A stretch of 15,599 bases of DNA, taken from positions 1 through 15,599 of the forward strand of contig JBFMGU010000251.1 of NCBI GenBank assembly GCA_040752415.1, written 5' to 3'. The DNA comes from Myxococcota bacterium. GTDB taxonomy: Bacteria; Myxococcota; JACRCW01. This document shows positions 1,969 through 10,275 of this stretch, in pieces. The first letter of the stretch is position 1, and the number at the start of each line of letters is the position of its first letter. The notes below the pieces were generated by a model. The model made no database searches, was not told the origin of the DNA, and saw only the letters and a program-made list of their open reading frames with translations. The position numbers and the translations under genes were made by a program.

Positions 1969-3909
1969 TCAAGTGTCGCGCTTGCGCGGTCGCGGCAGGC
2001 CGTACTCCTCGAGCCGGTTGACCAGCGCACGCCGCGACATGCCCAGCACTTCCGCCGCGCGCGACTGGTTGCCCCCGCACGCGTTCAGCGCTTCCAGGAT
2101 GCGCTCCCGCTCCACGGCCTTCAGCGCGTCCTTCAATTGGCGCGGAGAGGCCGGAGCCTGCGGGCCCGTCGACGACGGAGGCACGGGCGCCGGGGTGGGC
2201 AGGCGGAAGGCGGGCACGGTGGGGTTGGGGATCCCGGTGCGCATGGCGCTGGGCGCGGTGGGCAGCGTGGGTGAGGTGATGATCGGCTCGAACACCGACG
2301 GACGCGGCACCCGGGGAGGCGGCGCGGGGCTCGGCGTTGGCACGGGTGTCGACGAGGAAGGGGACACCGCGGACTGCAACATCATCCCCATCTTCTCCAC
2401 CGGCAGGTGGTCGAGCGAGATGACCTCGCCAGTGCACAACGTCACCGCGCGCTCCACCACGTTGCGCAGCTCCCGCACGTTTCCGGGCCAGGCGTAGGAG
2501 CGCATGAGCTGCAGCGCCAGGGGGTCCACGGTGGGAAGGCGGGTCTTGCCCTCCGCCCGCGCGAACTGCTCGACGAACGTCCGCACCAGGCCTTCCAACT
2601 CGTCGGTGCGCTCCCGCAGCGGCGGAATGCTGAGGGTGATGCCGTTCAGGCGGTAGATGAGATCCTGGCGGAACCTGCCGTGCGCCACCATCTCCTCGAG
2701 ATTGCGGTGCGTGGCGGTGAGCACGCGCACGTCAATGGGCCGCGGCTTGACGGCGCCCACGCGCACCACCGCGCGCTCCTCCAGCACCCGCAGCAGCTTC
2801 ACCTGCAGGGCCGCGGGCATCTCGCCCACCTCGTCCAGGAAGATGGTGCCGCCGTCCGCGGTCTCCAGCAGACCGGGCTTGGCCTTCACCGCGCCGGTGA
2901 ACGCGCCCCGCTCGTGACCAAACAGCTCGCTCTCCAGCAACGCCTCGGCCAGCGCGCCGCAGTTGATGGCCACAAAAGGCTTGTCGCTCCGACGGGAGAA
3001 GCGGTGGATCATGCGCGCCGCCACCTCCTTGCCCACGCCGGTCTCGCCCTGGAGGATCACGCTGATGGTGCTCTGCGCCACCCGCTCAATCAGCGCGCGC
3101 AGCCGCTCCATGGGACTGCCGTCCGCCGCCACCGCCTGCTCCGCCGTCACCAGCGGCGTGGTCCCGCGCAGCGCCGCGCCCGCGCGGTCCATGAGCTCCG
3201 CCGCGCTCCTTCCGTCGTCGGGATGGACCGCCACGCCGGTGGCCACCGCGCCGCCCTTGAGCCGCAACTGCACCTGCTCGCACAACTGCCGCGCCGCGGC
3301 CGCGCCTGCGTCCTCGAGGAGCAGCTCGTAGTCACGCGGGCTGAAGTTGGCCACCAGGCTCGTGGCCTTGAACACCACGTCCAGGGCGGACTCCACCTGC
3401 TCGTCGGTGACCTCGGGCGGGAACCGCATGCGCACCACGGCAAAGCTGCGTCCGGTGCGTTGTGCACGCAGGCATTCCTCCTCGAGCCGCGCGTCGAAAT
3501 AACCGTGGGGCCACAACCGCCGCGGCGCGCGCGGGACCTCGGCACGTTGCACAATCACCATCACCGAGCCCAGCTCGATCACGTCGCCGGGGTTCACCTC
3601 CACGGGCTCATTGGCCGTGAGCCGCGCGCCCCGCACCCGCGTCCCATTGAGGCTGCCCAGGTCCTGCACCTGCACCCGCGGGCCCACGGTGATCATCGCG
3701 TGGCGACGGGAGAGCGAGGGCTCATCCACCTGGATGTCCGTCTCCGCGGACCGGCCAATGAGCGCGTTCCCCTCCGGGAGCACGTGGCTGAGCGGCGTAC
3801 CCTCGCCCACCACCACGAGGCGGTAGCGCGCGGTCCCCGGCGGCAGCTCCACCGCGGGCACCGGGCGTGTGGCCTCCGTGGCTTCGTCGGCGTCGTCGAA
3901 CATGGCCAT
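1969..3909 (-). CDS. Sigma54-dependent enhancer-binding protein: FHA + degenerate GGDEF-like + AAA+ + Pro-rich linker + Fis-type HTH
   Basis: FHA motifs (IGRS...SLSRRHA...DLGSLNGT); Walker [24 protein letters not shown]; Walker [55 protein letters not shown]. Start probably ATG 3909 or 3903, with a TATCCT -10-like hexamer at 3925-3920. The ORF-track extension to 4323 overlaps other features. Confidence 0.93.
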
Positions 3910-4012
3910 GACGGCCGGCAGGATAGTGGCGCGGGCGGGGGTGGCGGAATCTCCGGGGTTCCCACCGCCCGGAGGAACGAAAGTGCCAGGCCCTTCGCGG
4001 TGTTGTGCGGGC

Positions 4013-4207
4013 ATGCACGCTCGCTCTCCCCTGCCCAGCACGGCGGCCGCGCCCCACGGCGCCACCTCCCTCGTACCGCGCCACGGTGGGCCCGACCTCG
4101 CCATCCTGGTGCTCAGCGCGGTCCTGGGCAGCGGGGTGATGTTCGTGGTGGCGTGCGGCTTCTGCGGGATGTTGACGTGGTTGATGGTGGCGCTGTTGCA
4201 CCGTTGA
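4013..4207 (+). CDS. Small hypothetical membrane protein (64 aa; alternative GTG start at 3983)
   Basis: The C-terminal ~35 codons are strongly hydrophobic ([37 protein letters not shown]) and almost all end in G/C. GGAGG at 3971 lies 7 nt before the in-frame GTG 3983. A hairpin follows the stop. Confidence 0.55.
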
Positions 4208-4214
4208 GGCCACC

Positions 4215-4246
4215 AAACACGAACGGCGCCCTCTCGGACGCCGTTC
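4215..4246 (-). terminator. GC-rich hairpin, probable intrinsic terminator (possibly bidirectional)
   Basis: The minus strand reads GAACGGCGTCC-GAGA-GGGCGCCGTTC (11 bp, one G-U) followed by GTGTTT. It lies between the convergent small ORF and the structured minus-strand segment. The U-tract is weak. Confidence 0.55.
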
Positions 4247-4620
4247 TCGAAGCAACTCCTCGCCGGTTTTCCGTTCGTTCCGACTCCCGTCGTCAATCTG
4301 CGGCAAGGCTCCTCACGGAACACTCACCGTCGACCCCTCCGGGAACCATGGCAACCACACCCTTTCGGGCCACGTTGCTGGCTTCACGTCTTCCAACCGA
4401 GGAACCACTTCGGATGAACCAGGTGATCACCAACGCCCCAAGACGTCGACAACAACCCGATCCATCACGCAACGCACCTCCCTCGCAGGAAACCCGTTGC
4501 GTCGTCACCGGAGATGTCCCAGGGCGCAAGCGCCACGGGAAACATCAGGTCCGGCAACCGGGAAGACACACCCTCTCGAGCATCTCTCCCGTCGTGGCGA
4601 GCACCCTGTAGGTCCACGTC
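4215..4620 (-). ncRNA. Candidate large structured non-coding RNA, family not recognised
   Basis: No convincing ORF. On the minus strand there are consecutive stems at 4561-4590 (GAGA loop), 4504-4558 (CUUG loop), 4467-4502 (GCGA loop), 4351-4378 (GAAA loop), 4309-4320 (GUGA loop) and 4221-4246 (GAGA loop), plus a long-range helix 4445-4455/4324-4334. Many pairs are G-U and work only on the minus strand. Boundaries are approximate. Confidence 0.55.
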
Positions 4621-4732
4621 ACACGCATTCTTGTAACCGCGCCCCGGAGCGGAGCAAGTTGATCACCCGCGCGCTCCCGACGTGGGCCACGGCGCCACGC
4701 CGCCCCGGACGTGGGTGTTTCCCGCCTGGTCT

Positions 4733-5983
4733 TCAGCCCGGAGGCGCGGGGGGCAGGCGGGGCGCGGGCTGCCGGGTCAACCGCCACAAACCCAGGATGC
4801 GACGCTGCACCTCGTCGGGAAACAAGGTGATGCGCTGCGGGAGCGCATCCAGCGGGTCGGGCACCACCGGTGCTTCCACGTCCTGGAGCGCGTACGCCCG
4901 ACGCAACGCGGCCACGTGACGCACCAGGCACTCGCGCGCGGTGCCGGTGGCGGGACGGACCTTGACGCACGCCTCGTAGTAGCGCGGGTGCAGCAGGCGC
5001 GTGTCCGCCACACCCAGCAGCTCATAGGCCTGGCCCAGCAGGTGGAAGGCCTCCTGCTGCATGCGCGTGTCCTGCGGCGTGGCATTGATGACGTCGTGGA
5101 GGAGCGTGGAGGAGCGCAACAGCTGGACCCAGGCCACGCCGGGGACGGGACCGCGCTGCTCGGCCACACGTGCGCGCTCCAGGAGGCTCTCGGCGCGGTC
5201 CAGCAACGTGCTGGCGTGATCCACGGCGCCCGCCACCGGCGGCTCGTTGCTCCACTGGAACAGGTCGCCGCGCCACGCTGTCGCCAGCTCGTGCATCACC
5301 GAGGGAGCGGAGGGGTTGGCCTGGATGGCGTCGGTGAGCTCCAGGGCCAGCTCCGGGCTGCGCAGGGACCGCACCGCCAGCGCCAGCGCCGTGCCGGAGG
5401 TCTGCTGCCACTCCACCGTCTCCCGCAAACCCAACCCCCGCGCCAGCACCACGCGGTAGCGCGCCAGGGCGTCCTGGAACCGACGCGTGGCGGCCAGCAG
5501 CGTGGCGTGCTCCAGGGGCGTGAGCGTGGGGTCGTTGGTGACGTGGGTGAGCGAGGGAAACATCACGCCCTCGTCGTTGCGGGAGTGACAGGAGATGCAG
5601 CCCTCCGCCACGTTCAGCAATGCGGCGCGCGCGTACGCGGTGTGCCCCTCGCGCAGGGCCGACTGCGCCTCGCGCGCGTCGGAGCGCAACGACTGCAGCA
5701 ACCAGTCCATGGCGGGGTCCGCCTGCGGCTTGTCCTTCCGCTCCAGGTCATGGGCCAGGTTGGCCAGCGTTTCCACGTCGTGGAGGACGCGCTCCCGGTT
5801 CCCCGGTGCGTTGAACCGCGCCGCCGAGGAGAGGTCCAGCAGCACGCGCGACAACGTGGCGGCGAGCTGTTCCATCCGGACGCGCCAGTCCTGCACGTCG
5901 GCGCTCCGGACCACCGTGGGCGCGCCCAGCGCCACCGCCAGCGCCAGCACGCTCCCCAGGATGCCCACCCGGTTGAGACGCAT
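4733..5983 (-). CDS. Exported monoheme c-type cytochrome (cytochrome c'-like helical N-domain) with TPR-like helical C-terminal region
   Basis: AGGAGG RBS before ATG 5983; signal peptide MRLNRVGILGSVLALAVALGAPTVVRS; a single CISCH heme-attachment motif (5585-5599) at the end of a ~100-aa helical region; later TPR-like segments (FQDALARYRVVL, EAFHLLGQAYELLG) and a YYEAC..ARECL Cys pair. Confidence 0.75.
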   Translation of the reverse strand: MRLNRVGILGSVLALAVALGAPTVVRSADVQDWRVRMEQLAATLSRVLLDLSSAARFNAPGNRERVLHDVETLANLAHDLERKDKPQADPAMDWLLQSLRSDAREAQSALREGHTAYARAALLNVAEGCISCHSRNDEGVMFPSLTHVTNDPTLTPLEHATLLAATRRFQDALARYRVVLARGLGLRETVEWQQTSGTALALAVRSLRSPELALELTDAIQANPSAPSVMHELATAWRGDLFQWSNEPPVAGAVDHASTLLDRAESLLERARVAEQRGPVPGVAWVQLLRSSTLLHDVINATPQDTRMQQEAFHLLGQAYELLGVADTRLLHPRYYEACVKVRPATGTARECLVRHVAALRRAYALQDVEAPVVPDPLDALPQRITLFPDEVQRRILGLWRLTRQPAPRLPPAPPG

Positions 5984-6173
5984 GGGACACCTCCTGGCGG
6001 CGTGCACAGCAACGCGCGTGCCCGCACCGACGCGGGAAACACCGCGGAAACTCGGCCTGATTTGCGCAAGCGCTGCGCTCGCCGGAGCATGATTGCGCCA
6101 CCCGCGGACCTCGTCGCTTTGCCCGATGGCAAGTGCGAACGGCGCGCGCACCCTCTTGATCCGGGGAGGCACC

Positions 6174-8414
6174 ATGGCCCGTATTTCCGCGCTGTTCTTC
6201 CTCGCGCCGCTGCTCATCTCCTCGCGCGCGTCTGCGTCGCTGGCGGAGGAGGGCGCCACTGGCGCACCGTATTTCCTGGTACCAGACGCCACGAGTTCCC
6301 TGGTGCTCGACGACGTCACGGCGCACGTGGAGATCTCCGCCCACGTGGCGCAGGTGCATCTCGTCCAGCGCTATCGGAACCCGTCCCATCGTCGCGTCGA
6401 CGCGCTGTACGTGTTTCCCGCCTCGACCCGAGCGGCCGTCCACGACATGACCATGACCGTGGGAGATCGTGTGTTGAAGGCGGAGGTCCAGGAAAGGGGT
6501 GTGGCGCGGGACACCTTCGAGAACGCGCGGCGCGCGGGTCACACGGCGTCGCTGCTGCAGCAATACCGACCCAACGTGTTCCAGATGGAGGTGGGGAACA
6601 TTCCCGCGCTCGGCACTGTGCTGGTGGAGCTGGACTACGTCGAGGAGCTGCTGTTCCACGACGACACCTACGAGTTCGTGCTCCCGGGCGTGGTGGGCCC
6701 CCGCTACGGCGGCGAGGCCTCTGGACCCTACGAGCGCGCTCTCGACGCGCCGAACCTGCCGCTCGTCCGGGCGCAGGTGCGCTTGTCCGCCGGCATGCCC
6801 ATCCGGGAGGTGCAGTCCTCCACCCATCGCATCACCGTGCGCCATGCGCAGGACGCCGACGACGTGGAATTGCTGGAGCCGGTGGGCCAGCGTGACTTCG
6901 TGTTGCGTTACCGCCTCACGCAGGATGCGCCGCGCGCCGGAGTCCTCCGTTACCAGGATGAGGACGGAGGACATCTCCTGCTCAGCGTGCAGCCACCGGA
7001 GCTGTCGTCGGAAGGCCTGGCACCGCGCGAGTATCTCTTCGTCCTCGACACCTCCGGGTCCATGGGGGGCCAGCCGGCGGAAATCGCCGAGGAGCTCATG
7101 CTCGCGCTGCTGGGCAACCTGCGGGAGGACGACTGGTTCAACGTCGTGTTCTTCGACAGCACGGTGCGGCTCTTGTCGTCGGAGAGCCTGGGCGTCACGC
7201 CGGAGTCGGTTTCCGCGGCCATGGAGCGCGTGGCCAGCGAATACGGCGGAGGTGGCACCAACGTGCTGCACGCGCTGCGCGCCGCGGTGGACCTGCCGCG
7301 TCCCAGGGTGGAGGGTCTTTCCCGCAGCCTCATCCTCGTCACCGACGGGCTTGTGACCGTGGACCGGGAAGCAGTGGAGCTCCTGCGGAGTCACCCCGGG
7401 GTGGACAACGTGTTTGCGTTCGGCGCCGGGCACCGGGTCAACCGGCATCTCATCGAGGAGCTTGGGCGGGTGGGACGGGGTGAAGCGTTCGTCGCCGCCA
7501 CGTTGCCGGATGCCCACGAGCAGGTCCGGCGTTTCCGGAACATCGTGGAGGCGCCGGTGCTCACCGACGTCCAGGTTCGTTTTGAGGGCCTGGAGGTCCA
7601 GGACGTGGATCCGGAGGTCCTGCCAGACCTGTTTGCGCATCGTCCGCTCTTCGTCACGGCGCGGTACCGCGCGGGAGCGACGGGGACGGTGGTGGTGCGT
7701 GGCCGTGCGGGCCAGCGGACCTGGGAGCAGCGGATTGCCCTCACCCGTGACGACGAGTCGAGCCACCACGGTGCCGTGAAGTACCTGTGGGCGCGGCGCC
7801 GCATTGCCGCCCTCACCGACCAGGTCAGCATCTCCAACAGCGCCGCCGCCAAGCGTGAGGCCACCGACCTGGCACAGCGCTACAACCTCGCCAGCGAGTA
7901 CACGAGCTTCGTGGCGGTGGATGACGCCGTGGTGCAACCACCCGAGGCAACGCACCCACCGCCCCACGTCCTGAAGCCGACCATCATCGACTTCAGCGGA
8001 GCCACCATCGAGGGCGAGCGGGCGCGGGCGGAGGGTTCCCATCTCGTCGATTGTCGCCGCAGCGCTTTTCGCTCGCTTGTCTCTCCACGAACGGACTTCG
8101 AGGCTGAGCTCCTGGCCAGCGCCCCCGCCGTGGTGGCGGTGGAACCTTCTCCTCCCGTGCGGCTGCGCGTCGTCTCCGTCGCGGGAGCGAGTGCTACCGA
8201 CGTGGAACGTGTGCTGCTTCCCGTCGCGGAGGCGTTGCACCGCGCGCTGGGGCGACCGCAGCGGGCCGAGCTGGAGGTCGTCCTGGATGAGAACGGTGAA
8301 GTGGCCGCGGTGCATCACCCCACCCGGGCAGACGCGCTGCGCAGGATCCTGCAGCGGGTGCGCTGGCCTCGGACGGGAAAGCACGTCGTGATTCGGGTGG
8401 AGCTGAAGCGCTGA
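6174..8414 (+). CDS. Exported VIT (vault/inter-alpha-trypsin) + VWA domain protein with a CglF-like insert and a TonB-C-like C-terminus
   Basis: GGAGG RBS before ATG 6174; signal peptide; VIT motifs (VQRYRNP..DALYVFP...[13 protein letters not shown]...[17 protein letters not shown]); VWA with intact MIDAS ([18 protein letters not shown]); LWARRRI..L and [12 protein letters not shown], typical of this family. Confidence 0.9.
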
Positions 8415-10259: not shown

Positions 10260-10275
10260 TGGCACCGGTCTTGCG
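10260..10275 (+). promoter_or_regulatory. Sigma54 (-24/-12) promoter
   Basis: TGGCAC-CGGTC-TTGC-G matches the TGGCAC-N5-TTGC consensus exactly, 16 nt before ATG 10292. A TTGCGCGCAA palindrome at 10194-10203 is a candidate upstream activator site. Confidence 0.8.

Follow-up and report, generated by a model that had tools for sequence, protein, structure and literature searches.

The window, i.e., the whole stretch of 15,599 nt that was analysed, belongs to one MAG of 11 Mb in 520 contigs with 4.3% contamination. Its minus strand carries a secreted-protein gene and an FHA/sigma-54 activator gene, and between them, on the same strand, lies a candidate structured noncoding RNA (ncRNA), followed by a likely small ORF of the opposite strand (Table 1). 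One DNA sequencing run contributes low-depth fragments only, leaves 4316-4617 uncovered and is uninformative on expression.

The secreted-protein gene has a homolog in one of 60 relatives (G027) and two paralogs in its own genome, on C79 and C335, neither of which adjoins a sigma-54 activator. The small ORF is regarded as context and not as part of the RNA. It displays in-frame codon periodicity over 4045-4210 (GC3 0.93-1.0, GC2 about 0.47); no paralog of it was found in the genome, and its exact sequence is present in the Atlas without a family. A pattern search with the sigma-54 consensus returned two matches in the window versus 0.09 expected, at 3988-3974 (minus strand) and 10260-10274 (plus strand), and none upstream of the RNA. 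The first match (TGGCACTTTCGTTCC) suggests that, downstream of the RNA, the activator has a promoter to itself.

Table 1. Features of the locus and of its surroundings, in window positions
Feature	Position	Strand	Basis and remarks
Secreted-protein gene	4733-5983	-	Upstream of the RNA
Promoter-like pair, TTGCTC (4657-4652), 16 nt, TACAAG (4635-4630)	4630..4657	-	Sequence; weak, inferred
Candidate ncRNA, ~400-415 nt	4212..4625	-	z-scores, GC dip, no codon periodicity, no Rfam match; 5' end inferred from the promoter-like pair, 3' end at the U-tract after the terminator hairpin
P1 hairpin, GAGA loop	4559..4591	-	MFE fold
P2 hairpin, G(CUUG)C loop	4504..4558	-	MFE fold
P3 hairpin, GCGA loop	4467..4502	-	MFE fold
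P4 hairpin, 24 pairs, G-U-rich, UUGG loop	4413..4466	-	MFE fold; part of model R3
P5 multibranch domain, 19-pair closing stem	4248..4412	-	MFE fold and RNAalifold structure
P5 closing stem	4412-4394 with 4266-4248	-	MFE fold
P5a, GCAAC..GCCC[GAAA]GGGU..GUUGC hairpin (GGCCC-GAAA-GGGU)	4382-4345	-	MFE fold
P5b, GUGA loop, includes UUCC[GUGA]GGAG	4344-4285	-	MFE fold
P5 purine-rich strand containing GGA	about 4290-4267	-	
Terminator-like hairpin and tail	4213..4246 (hairpin 4246-4221)	-	Terminator scan, MFE fold
Small ORF, likely, 64 aa, one long hydrophobic stretch	4013..4207	+	Codon periodicity
Sigma-54-type promoter motif	3974..3988	-	Pattern search; about 95 nt upstream of the activator ATG
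FHA/sigma-54 activator gene	1969-3879	-	ATG at 3879; co-oriented, downstream of the RNA

Fold and ends of the candidate RNA

Read from 4620 to 4215, the minus strand reaches an MFE of -207.6 kcal/mol, compared with -167.6 +/- 5.9 kcal/mol in 100 dinucleotide shuffles (z -6.74), none of which folds as well, whereas on the plus strand of 4215-4620 the z-score is -0.36 and 36 of the 100 shuffles are equally good. The MFE fold contains the minus-strand helices that an initial annotation of this DNA had recognised, its five GNRA loops and one CUUG loop, and the many G-U pairs on which it had fixed the strand (38 of the 162 MFE pairs). Its choice of strand also stands, the excess structure being found on the minus strand only in the shuffling comparison that it had called for. 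In 5' to 3' order, the loops are GAGA, CUUG, GCGA, UUGG, GAAA, GUGA and GAGA, and folding the entire 871-nt intergenic gap returns identical helices. The multibranch domain was likewise recovered, whereas the long-range helix UUGUUGUCGAC/GUCGACGGUGA that had been proposed to close it is absent from the fold. Instead, positions 4466-4413 fold locally as P4, and a second copy of the element in the same genome, at C2, supports both P4 and P5.

The composition of the region differs from its surroundings, as GC falls to 0.61-0.64 and the minus strand has G>C and U>A. Codon periodicity was not found over 4232-4556, where a conserved protein ORF would have contradicted the RNA reading. At the DNA level, the terminator is the only inverted repeat detected, and the element has no internal repeats.

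The 3' end is formed by the 11-bp GAGA hairpin already noticed by the initial annotation, which appears both in the fold and in a terminator scan. Its 11 pairs, 8 of them G-C, enclose a 4-nt loop and are followed by GUGUUUGG. A G+C-rich hairpin followed by a U-run is thus present at 4246-4221, the U-run in the tail (GTGTTTGG) being short and interrupted; over 3700-4900, the scan gives 2 such sites versus 0.5 expected. In other Myxococcota genomes, hairpins of this kind also terminate transcription units that are unrelated. The promoter-like pair indicated before is present upstream of the 5' end; it is rated weak because a sigma-70 scan of 3700-4900 lists no promoter.

Known families and genomic background

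None of the 4227 models of Rfam 15 matches the window at the gathering score, and the novelty proposed for the element is therefore not removed. Over 3800-4800, at E <= 10, just two microRNA models are returned with 15-17 bits versus thresholds of 60-90, and the C2 copy receives five weak matches of 14-16 bits, far under threshold.

Stable folding as such also occurs elsewhere in this genome. Strands rich in G and U generally fold better, about 10% of the noncoding regions of the genome lie at z <= -4.9, and the raw strand asymmetry of the region, ranked 18th of 1318, is equalled elsewhere. The element could accordingly be a chance or compositional artefact, namely a G+U-rich spacer of lower GC that folds well, which we consider extremely doubtful. 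Indeed, the dinucleotide shuffles control for composition, and 0/100 match the fold. Among 90 random low-periodicity regions, all 9 that reach z <= -4.9 are symmetric foldbacks, structured on both strands, and the one-strand pattern occurs in 0/90, whereas the same survey gives -4.9/-0.9 for the window locus and -5.0/-2.0 for C2. Finally, the fold is shared by a second, independent locus to an extent outside the range of 174 and 200 controls for consensus structure and retained pairs, respectively.

Foldback inverted repeats fill the noncoding DNA of the genome (at least 62 regions, 57 of which match one another), and one of them directly follows the C79 paralog of the secreted-protein gene. 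Since the element also occupies two unlinked places, it might be a decayed DNA repeat or mobile relic (a palindrome or foldback, or the scaffold of a retron, intron or guide RNA) with no present function. A foldback or MITE-like repeat was rejected: foldbacks are equally structured on both strands and match one another, whereas the element is structured on one strand (plus-strand z -0.36), is single-copy by BLASTN and nhmmer in its own genome and has no significant match to any of the 62 foldback regions. Neither copy has an intron, retron or other Rfam match at threshold, genes for a reverse transcriptase, transposase or nuclease are absent from the window and from the neighbourhood of the C2 copy, and phage and plasmid collections scanned in 'distant' mode yielded no hit. 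Neutral decay down to the 45% identity of the two copies would moreover have erased their shared pairing, which is kept. With two copies only and no internal repeats, a relic is quite improbable, and the remnant of a mobile element offered by the initial annotation received no support.

A diverged second copy in the same genome

Model R3, a covariance model for which 4467-4248 of the window locus (C170) was the sole input, terminator excluded, was searched against the 11-Mb genome. It matched C2:74406-74619 over its full length with 28 bits and an E-value of 3.5e-5, such E-values being rough owing to a short calibration. A model with the terminator included (R1), for which the RNAalifold structure was used as for R3, recovers the same place. 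By sequence alone, nhmmer and word-7 BLASTN on the genome yield a weak lead at C2 and nothing more, and BLASTN of 4200-4660 against the genome and 60 relatives returns the self match alone. The copy lies at about 74790-74365 on the minus strand (G000:C2), in a region with z-scores of -4.5 on the minus and -1.4 on the plus strand. It ends in the same terminator as the window copy: 18 nt of 3' arm and tail are identical, with two exact matches in the whole genome. Another place, C79:63791-63968 (R3 E-value 0.077), consists of about 130 nt enclosed by a perfect 22-bp stem and was not counted as a member.

Aligned with MAFFT on sequence alone, the two copies are 45% identical, which is the level of controls, and yet keep the fold; this combination is what marks selection on RNA structure. 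The consensus energy of the pair is -113 kcal/mol with an SCI of 0.486, versus -50.5 +/- 10.7 kcal/mol and 0.236 +/- 0.048 (maximum 0.356) in 174 control alignments; on the plus strand, the values are -62 kcal/mol and 0.356. As many as 93 of the 162 MFE pairs of the window copy are canonical in C2, versus 56.8 +/- 9.9 in 200 controls (maximum 85). Compensatory pairs number 30 in the sequence-only alignment, versus 14.7 +/- 4.6 in controls, one of which reaches 34; these pair changes are counts from a two-sequence comparison.

Retention varies along the RNA. P3 keeps 11/15 pairs, six of them via changes on both sides, and P4 keeps 17/24, nine of which are compensatory. In the sequence-only alignment, 36/60 pairs of P5 are retained, the own MFE topology of C2 being the same, and 7/12 pairs of P1 are canonical, with GCAA as the loop of the aligned C2 hairpin. 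P2, with only 7/22 pairs, is not conserved and neither is the 5' stem. The purine-rich, GGA-containing strand of P5 and the GNRA caps at P1 and P5a are retained in both copies. Apart from P2, which is not shared, the two loci thus have the helix order in common and keep pairs through sequence change, as two members of one family do. It is likely, on these comparisons, that the element is a genuine RNA with a fold maintained by selection.

The homolog search advised by the initial annotation succeeded within the genome, where R3 found the diverged copy, and returned none outside it. Outside, about 200 Myxococcota genomes and two collection scans were covered, mostly at low sensitivity, with one further genome of the same family and two more of the same class in the search set. 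On 150 relatives, model R2 detected generic terminator hairpins and nothing else, and R3 returned no homolog, a weak negative as its stricter filters miss even the C2 copy. The best R3 E-values were 0.0066 in 11 genomes of family f18, for alignments that resemble coding sequence, and 0.11 in the nearest three genomes (G001-G003); strict filters left nothing in 41 genomes of family f11. Contigs selected by pattern gave the same outcome: 80 pattern matches in metagenome contigs with the upstream protein (0 confirmed), 80 of more than 118 stretches of genome contigs with a 17-nt terminator word (R3, no real match) and 73 stretches of metagenome contigs with a two-part pattern (R2, no real match).

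The neighbours of the C2 copy differ from those of the window copy, tblastx between the two loci revealing no common gene. Upstream of the C2 copy lies a divergent ABC-transporter gene and downstream a convergent GNAT gene (about 300 aa), so that this copy depends on a promoter of its own, and no co-oriented gene is there for it to regulate. This bears on three cis-acting alternatives. In the first, the element is the structured 3' UTR, or a processing product, of the secreted-protein gene and stabilises its mRNA; it starts about 110 nt past the stop, on the same strand and with no clear terminator between. The C2 copy cannot be a 3' UTR, since its upstream neighbour is divergent, and the C79 and C335 paralogs of the gene are unmatched by the RNA models save for a weak, different hairpin 3 kb off at C79, which makes such an origin very improbable.

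In the second alternative, the activator gene has the element as a giant 5' leader or an attenuator, and transcription could run past the element's terminator. The position that the initial annotation had given, upstream of this gene and co-oriented with it, is correct. The link between both is only positional, as about 335 nt with the terminator at one end, the likely plus-strand ORF and the sigma-54-type motif intervene before the ATG. Since the two copies have different flanking genes and no co-oriented gene follows the C2 copy, the RNA is not read as the leader of the activator. In addition, the best activator homolog found in G027 (53% identity) is preceded by a short gap, about 100 nt long, that lacks the element. 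A leader is the least probable of all the readings weighed here.

The third alternative comes from the other side of the terminator. At each locus, a gene converges on the RNA, and its 3' end faces the terminator: the small ORF stops at 4207 opposite the hairpin 4221-4246, and the GNAT gene stops at C2:74341, near the RNA end at 74365. The RNA could thus be a convergent antisense regulator, its 3' end overlapping that of the gene whose mRNA it controls, in the manner of a type I toxin-antitoxin pair with a shared bidirectional terminator, and type I toxins are small and hydrophobic, as is the partner in the window. Such RNAs, e.g., par RNA I/II, RatA/TxpA and SR4/BsrG, are convergent and share a terminator with their partner. 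The candidate resembles them in facing a small hydrophobic ORF, whereas it is 2-4 times longer than type I antitoxins and structured throughout. The two partners have no relation to each other, one being a small membrane peptide and the other an acetyltransferase of about 300 aa; C2 is without a small hydrophobic ORF, and the putative pair is therefore not conserved. Convergent neighbours at 2/2 copies are expected by chance about once in 4, the small ORF belongs to no known family, and the plus-strand reading of the hairpin lacks a U-tract. As the possible overlap is limited to the hairpin, about 370 nt of conserved structure would be left unexplained, and antisense control of this kind appears improbable.

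Proposed role and comparison with known RNAs

The preferred reading is that 4212-4625 of the minus strand is an independent gene for a stand-alone structured ncRNA of about 400 nt, one of two diverged paralogs, to which we assign a probability of roughly 0.6. The initial annotation had favoured a stand-alone large ncRNA as well, and this reading is supported by the one-strand fold, the lack of codon periodicity and of an Rfam match, the terminator-like end and the C2 copy. The two sequences, both from a single MAG, probably represent a lineage-restricted family of structured ncRNAs that was undescribed before. Transcription would start at the weak sigma-70-type promoter-like pair 4657-4630 and stop at the terminator hairpin. 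The RNA would not serve as the leader of a neighbouring gene and may act in trans, its fold serving as a scaffold or decoy to which one or several proteins bind, like 6S, Ms1, CsrB-type or OLE-type RNAs; the purine-rich GGA strand of P5 and the GNRA caps at P1 and P5a would be the best candidate contact sites. The scaffold or decoy mode in particular is drawn by analogy and is a tentative, rather doubtful proposal. More speculative and still less likely, the two loci might be the founding pair of a class of large, ornate RNAs that is restricted to this lineage and of a standing similar to OLE, ROOL or GOLLD. Such an RNA would function as a ribonucleoprotein core or as a catalytic or architectural RNA, in which the P1 and P5a caps would make tertiary contacts and the GGA strand of P5 would provide a binding platform.

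Bacterial RNAs that are large and structured but have no assigned function are, to our knowledge, rare, and several of them were the starting point for new biochemistry. The drifted second copy provides an internal control that most single-genome predictions are without. If transcription is confirmed, the pair offers a ready mutational map, with P3, P4 and P5 conserved and P2 free, and a reason for sequencing more of this barely sampled Myxococcota lineage. If the locus is not transcribed, it is a warning that GC-rich genomes can produce strand-specific folding signals.

OLE, GOLLD, ROOL, HEARO and raiA are orphan large structured bacterial ncRNAs, and long invariant nucleotide stretches are typical of such classes. 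The candidate resembles them in its length of several hundred nt, its many helices with stable tetraloops, its putative own transcription unit, the lack of an obvious coding or cis role and its narrow phylogenetic range. Unlike them, it matches no Rfam 15 model and is represented by two copies in one genome, and unlike OLE, which has associated proteins, it is without a conserved protein neighbour. In CsrB/RsmZ-type sponges, many hairpins present GGA in the loop, whereas GGA occurs here in one strand of P5 and not in loops, and this class was rejected.

Myxobacteria have big genomes and complex regulation. We know of very few myxobacterial ncRNAs that have been described, and a literature search for this group gave Pxr only. 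Pxr of Myxococcus and Cystobacter is an RNA of 108 nt with two or three stem-loops, located downstream of nla19, presumed to have a sigma-54 promoter and with diverged paralogs in some genomes (PMC5568312). The candidate is similar in being a myxobacterial stem-loop ncRNA that adjoins a gene for a sigma-54-dependent regulator and has a diverged paralog. It differs by its size of about 400 nt, its six helical units and its position upstream of the activator; the sole nearby sigma-54-type motif is downstream of it, and the C2 copy is near no such regulator. Set against this description, the candidate was not identified as Pxr, as size, helix count and position differ.

The initial annotation had also been unable to match the region to RNase P RNA or 6S RNA, and this holds: the genome encodes them at C327:3975-4383 (RF00010, 282 bits) and C473:1033-1248 (RF00013, 58.8 bits), respectively, and the window matches neither model. 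6S RNA is one long helix of about 180 nt with a central bubble, whereas the candidate is a row of separate hairpins, and RNase P RNA has one essential copy per genome; both identities were rejected. The candidate shares with these RNAs the nature of a stand-alone structured RNA with, presumably, its own promoter, and with RNase P RNA a similar length. A CTTGYY...GGTTAYMA element, spaced comparably to the promoter-like pair of the window, precedes the C2 copy; this motif, defined post hoc and not used as a test, occurs 11 times in the genome, 4 times in a noncoding-like context. A related element precedes the RNase P RNA of the same genome, outside these 11 occurrences because its spacing falls outside the pattern, and both copies of the candidate thus have upstream of them a promoter-like element that resembles the one of RNase P RNA.

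Strand-specific folding of the element

Read as RNA, the minus strand from 4620 to 4215 has a strand-specific and unusually stable fold. Its energy is -207.6 kcal/mol against -167.6 +/- 5.9 for 100 dinucleotide shuffles, none of which was as good (z = -6.74), whereas the plus strand of the same stretch (4215-4620) gives z = -0.36, with 36 of 100 shuffles folding equally well. The initial annotation, which had assigned the RNA to the minus strand and proposed such shuffle scores for each strand, is thereby borne out. The architecture is a series of local helices (see table), and P1-P5 and the terminal hairpin recur when the entire intergenic gap is folded. The helices and loops first read from the sequence are found in the computed fold, including the final 11-bp GAGA hairpin, which the terminator scan also lists; the exception is a long-range closing helix, in whose place the fold has the local hairpin P4 and closes P5 with another stem. 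In agreement with a minus-strand RNA, G-U pairs account for 38 of the 162 pairs. The element coincides with a GC dip (0.61-0.64 versus 0.72-0.75 in the flanks), its minus strand has more G than C and more U than A, and no codon periodicity is present over 4232-4556.

Features of the element and its surroundings in the window
Feature	Position	Strand	Details
DUF2167 gene	922-1902	minus	Pfam and ORF reading
FHA/sigma-54 activator/HTH_8 gene	1969-3879	minus	Pfam and ORF reading
Sigma-54-type motif TGGCACTTTCGTTCC	3988-3974	minus	~95 nt upstream of activator ATG
Likely 64-aa ORF	4013-4207	plus	one long hydrophobic stretch
11-pair terminal hairpin	4246-4221	minus	GAGA loop, then GUGUUUGG; fold and terminator scan
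P5 multibranch domain	4412-4248	minus	contains P5a (GAAA loop) and P5b (GUGA loop)
P4	4466-4413	minus	UUGG loop
P3	4502-4467	minus	GCGA loop
P2	4558-4504	minus	CUUG loop
P1	4591-4559	minus	GAGA loop
-35/-10-like pair, weak	4657-4630	minus	TTGCTC, 16 nt, TACAAG
Gene for 416-aa protein	4733-5983	minus	hydrophobic N-terminus, without Pfam family; Pfam and ORF reading
VIT-VWA gene	6093-8414	plus	Pfam and ORF reading
Second sigma-54-type match	10260-10274	plus	

For comparison, 1318 stretches of the genome that lack codon periodicity and measure 250 nt or more were folded on both strands in their central 250-nt window, and shuffle z-scores were computed for 90 of them taken at random. By raw energy the element is not extreme (141st of 1318 after GC correction); by strand asymmetry it ranks 18th. 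Nine of the 90 reached z <= -4.9 on the better strand, all nine also with z <= -2.9 on the other; these are near-perfect foldback repeats, a class separate from the element. Strong structure on one strand only was seen in 0/90, the two strands scoring -4.9 and -0.9 in the window of the element (contig C170) and -5.0 and -2.0 in that of a second locus on contig C2 of the same genome.

A second locus with a shared fold

BLASTN and nhmmer on the genome found the element once, and both gave a weak lead at C2. R1, a covariance model derived from 4413-4212 only, aligned end to end with C2:74367-74566 (28.2 bits; E = 2.4e-4, a rough value because calibration was short), with part of the score contributed by the terminator. 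The terminator 3' arm and tail are identical over 18 nt at the two loci, the sole exact matches in the genome, and GAACGGCGCCC...GGGCGCCGUUC hairpins also terminate unrelated units in other Myxococcota genomes. A terminator-free model, R3 (4467-4248, C170 alone), was therefore built; its full-length match at C2:74406-74619 (28 bits; E = 3.5e-5 for the 11-Mb genome, equally rough) lies immediately upstream of the C2 terminator. The C2 copy spans G000:C2:74365-74790 (minus strand; G000 is the genome under study), and folding of the region 74355-74870 gives minus- and plus-strand z-scores of -4.5 and -1.4, respectively. Near-identical GAACGGCGCCC-loop-GGGCGCCGUUC hairpins followed by a U-run occur in relatives at G034:C8, G073:C74 and G114:C222, the source of all matches of model R2 outside the genome. 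A third, weak R3 match, C79:63791-63968 (plus; 17.3 bits, E = 0.077), was not counted as a family member; it forms a perfect 22-bp stem around ~130 nt and sits where two genes converge across a 250-nt gap, ~3 kb downstream of a paralog of the gene upstream of the element.

The fold is conserved between two loci that have diverged to background sequence identity. Aligned by the model, the two loci show both-sided changes at 14 of 71 pairs, with 94.9% of cells pairing; as such an alignment is biased towards structure, the test was redone with sequence-only MAFFT alignments, in which the copies are 45% identical, the same as C170 and unrelated noncoding regions (mean 45%). The RNAalifold consensus is -113 kcal/mol, with a structure conservation index (SCI) of 0.486, against -50.5 +/- 10.7 and 0.236 +/- 0.048 (maximum SCI 0.356) for 174 control alignments, drawn from both strands of 87 further noncoding regions, each 400 nt or longer. 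On the reverse complement of the alignment, the values fall to -62 kcal/mol and 0.356. The C2 sequence can form canonically 93 of the 162 minimum-free-energy pairs of C170 (200 controls: 56.8 +/- 9.9, maximum 85), and 30 pairs are compensatory versus 14.7 +/- 4.6 in 200 controls, a count not decisive alone because one control reached 34. Chance is placed last of five alternative explanations.

The signal is carried by P3 (11/15 pairs), P4 (17/24) and P5 (36/60); P2 (7/22) and the 5' stem show none, and MAFFT misaligns the terminator owing to its unequal loop lengths. Both copies share the order P1 (GNRA loop), variable P2, P3, P4, P5 and terminator, with a long, G-U-rich P4 capped by a YUUG-type loop and a P5 combining a GGCCC-GNAA-GGGU hairpin with a purine-rich, GGA-containing strand.

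Gene setting and independence

The window is an entire 15.6-kb contig of an 11-Mb, 520-contig genome (completeness 96.8%, contamination 4.3%), and the element sits within the 850-nt gap between 3880 and 4732. The ATG at 3879 is likely the activator start; the frame stays open upstream to 4323, the extension being without gene-like codon bias. Past the terminator, the plus strand has clear codon periodicity (GC3 0.93-1.0 over ~4045-4210), and the likely 64-aa ORF converges on the terminator hairpin. This ORF lacks both a genomic paralog and a family assignment; its exact sequence is present in Atlas. The sigma-54-type pattern TGGCAC-N5-TTSC matches the window twice against 0.09 expected, and the match nearer the activator hints that this gene may be controlled by a sigma-54 activator, possibly itself; such activators are numerous in this genome and its relatives. 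The activator's best homolog found in the relative G027 is 53% identical over its full length, with an upstream gap of only ~100 nt. That homolog (G027:C142, 3032-4834 of the retrieved stretch, minus) reportedly carries a single in-frame TAG within the open frame that was matched.

The C2 copy lies between a GNAT gene (plus, convergent on its terminator) and an ABC-transporter gene (plus, divergent), and the two loci have no neighbouring genes in common. A role as leader of the activator, the fourth-ranked alternative, is rejected on account of the intervening likely ORF and sigma-54-type motif, the C2 neighbours and the short G027 gap. An origin as 3' UTR of the upstream gene, ranked third, is impossible for the C2 copy, whose flanking genes are convergent and divergent and which thus needs its own promoter. 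The upstream 416-aa protein has two paralogs in the genome (C79:59764-60825 and C335:8650-9600; 41% and 29% identity) and one homolog among 60 relatives searched (G027:C31:84268-85257, 34%).

The element has a terminator-like 3' end and is independent of neighbouring genes, and its context argues for a stand-alone gene. Its own promoter would drive transcription into a ~400-nt RNA. The promoter-like pair pointed out initially is present in the sequence, and an element with similar spacing lies upstream of the C2 copy, but the pair is absent from the promoter scan listing; it also resembles an element upstream of the genome's RNase P RNA, a motif defined after the fact. The foremost alternative is a convergent antisense regulator of the facing gene: both copies point at the 3' end of a gene, at C170 the small hydrophobic ORF, but the convergent partners are unrelated between loci and the possible overlap is tiny.

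Identity, distribution and possible role

Rfam gave no family for either copy, in line with the earlier failure to match a known class. RNase P RNA and 6S RNA were both located elsewhere in the genome, and the window holds no tRNA or tmRNA. Pxr, a known sRNA of myxobacteria encoded next to a sigma-54 regulator, is described as 108 nt long with two or three stem-loops, downstream of nla19, and thought to use a sigma-54 promoter (PMC5568312); on that description, size, architecture and position all differ from those of the element. Literature listings and the beginnings of abstracts, a narrow basis, contained no description of such a myxobacterial RNA.

Homologs were not found outside the genome, in a sparsely sampled lineage: the relatives available for comparison include one genome from its family and two from its class. 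Sensitive model searches took in the genome itself, those three and 11 genomes of family f18; model searches of 150 and 41 genomes are weak negatives, because their stricter filters missed even the C2 copy. Three collection scans gave chance matches only, and the sole sequencing run that matches part of the window, a DNA run, leaves the element uncovered.

As a new structured-RNA candidate, restricted to its lineage and accompanied by an informative paralog, the element is credible. The RNA may work in trans, offering proteins a folded scaffold or a decoy. Trans action is preferred on two grounds: what is conserved is the architecture (P3, P4, P5 and the GNRA caps at P1/P5a), not an extended single-stranded seed, and a conserved cis target is absent; the scaffold or decoy mode is tentatively set at about 0.3, as no partner is indicated.

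Ranked second among the alternatives is a remnant of a repeat or of a mobile element, the latter raised initially beside a stand-alone ncRNA. The stand-alone candidate is supported by the two loci and the element's own 3' end; the mobile remnant is not, no mobility gene lying near either copy and phage and plasmid collections giving no match. The only DNA-level inverted repeat in the element is the terminator, its hairpins are not copies of each other, and the foldback repeats of the genome are unrelated to it in sequence. The latter, long and near-perfect, occupy at least 62 noncoding regions (e.g., C470:44282-44621, C412:4634-5084 and C79:60864-61178). In the two examples folded the arms span roughly 130-150 bp, and both strands reach 250-nt minimum free energies as low as -243 kcal/mol. 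The repeats look like a multicopy MITE-like family, 57 of the 62 matching one another by BLASTN and 61 being self-inverted, and one copy directly follows a paralog of the window's upstream gene.
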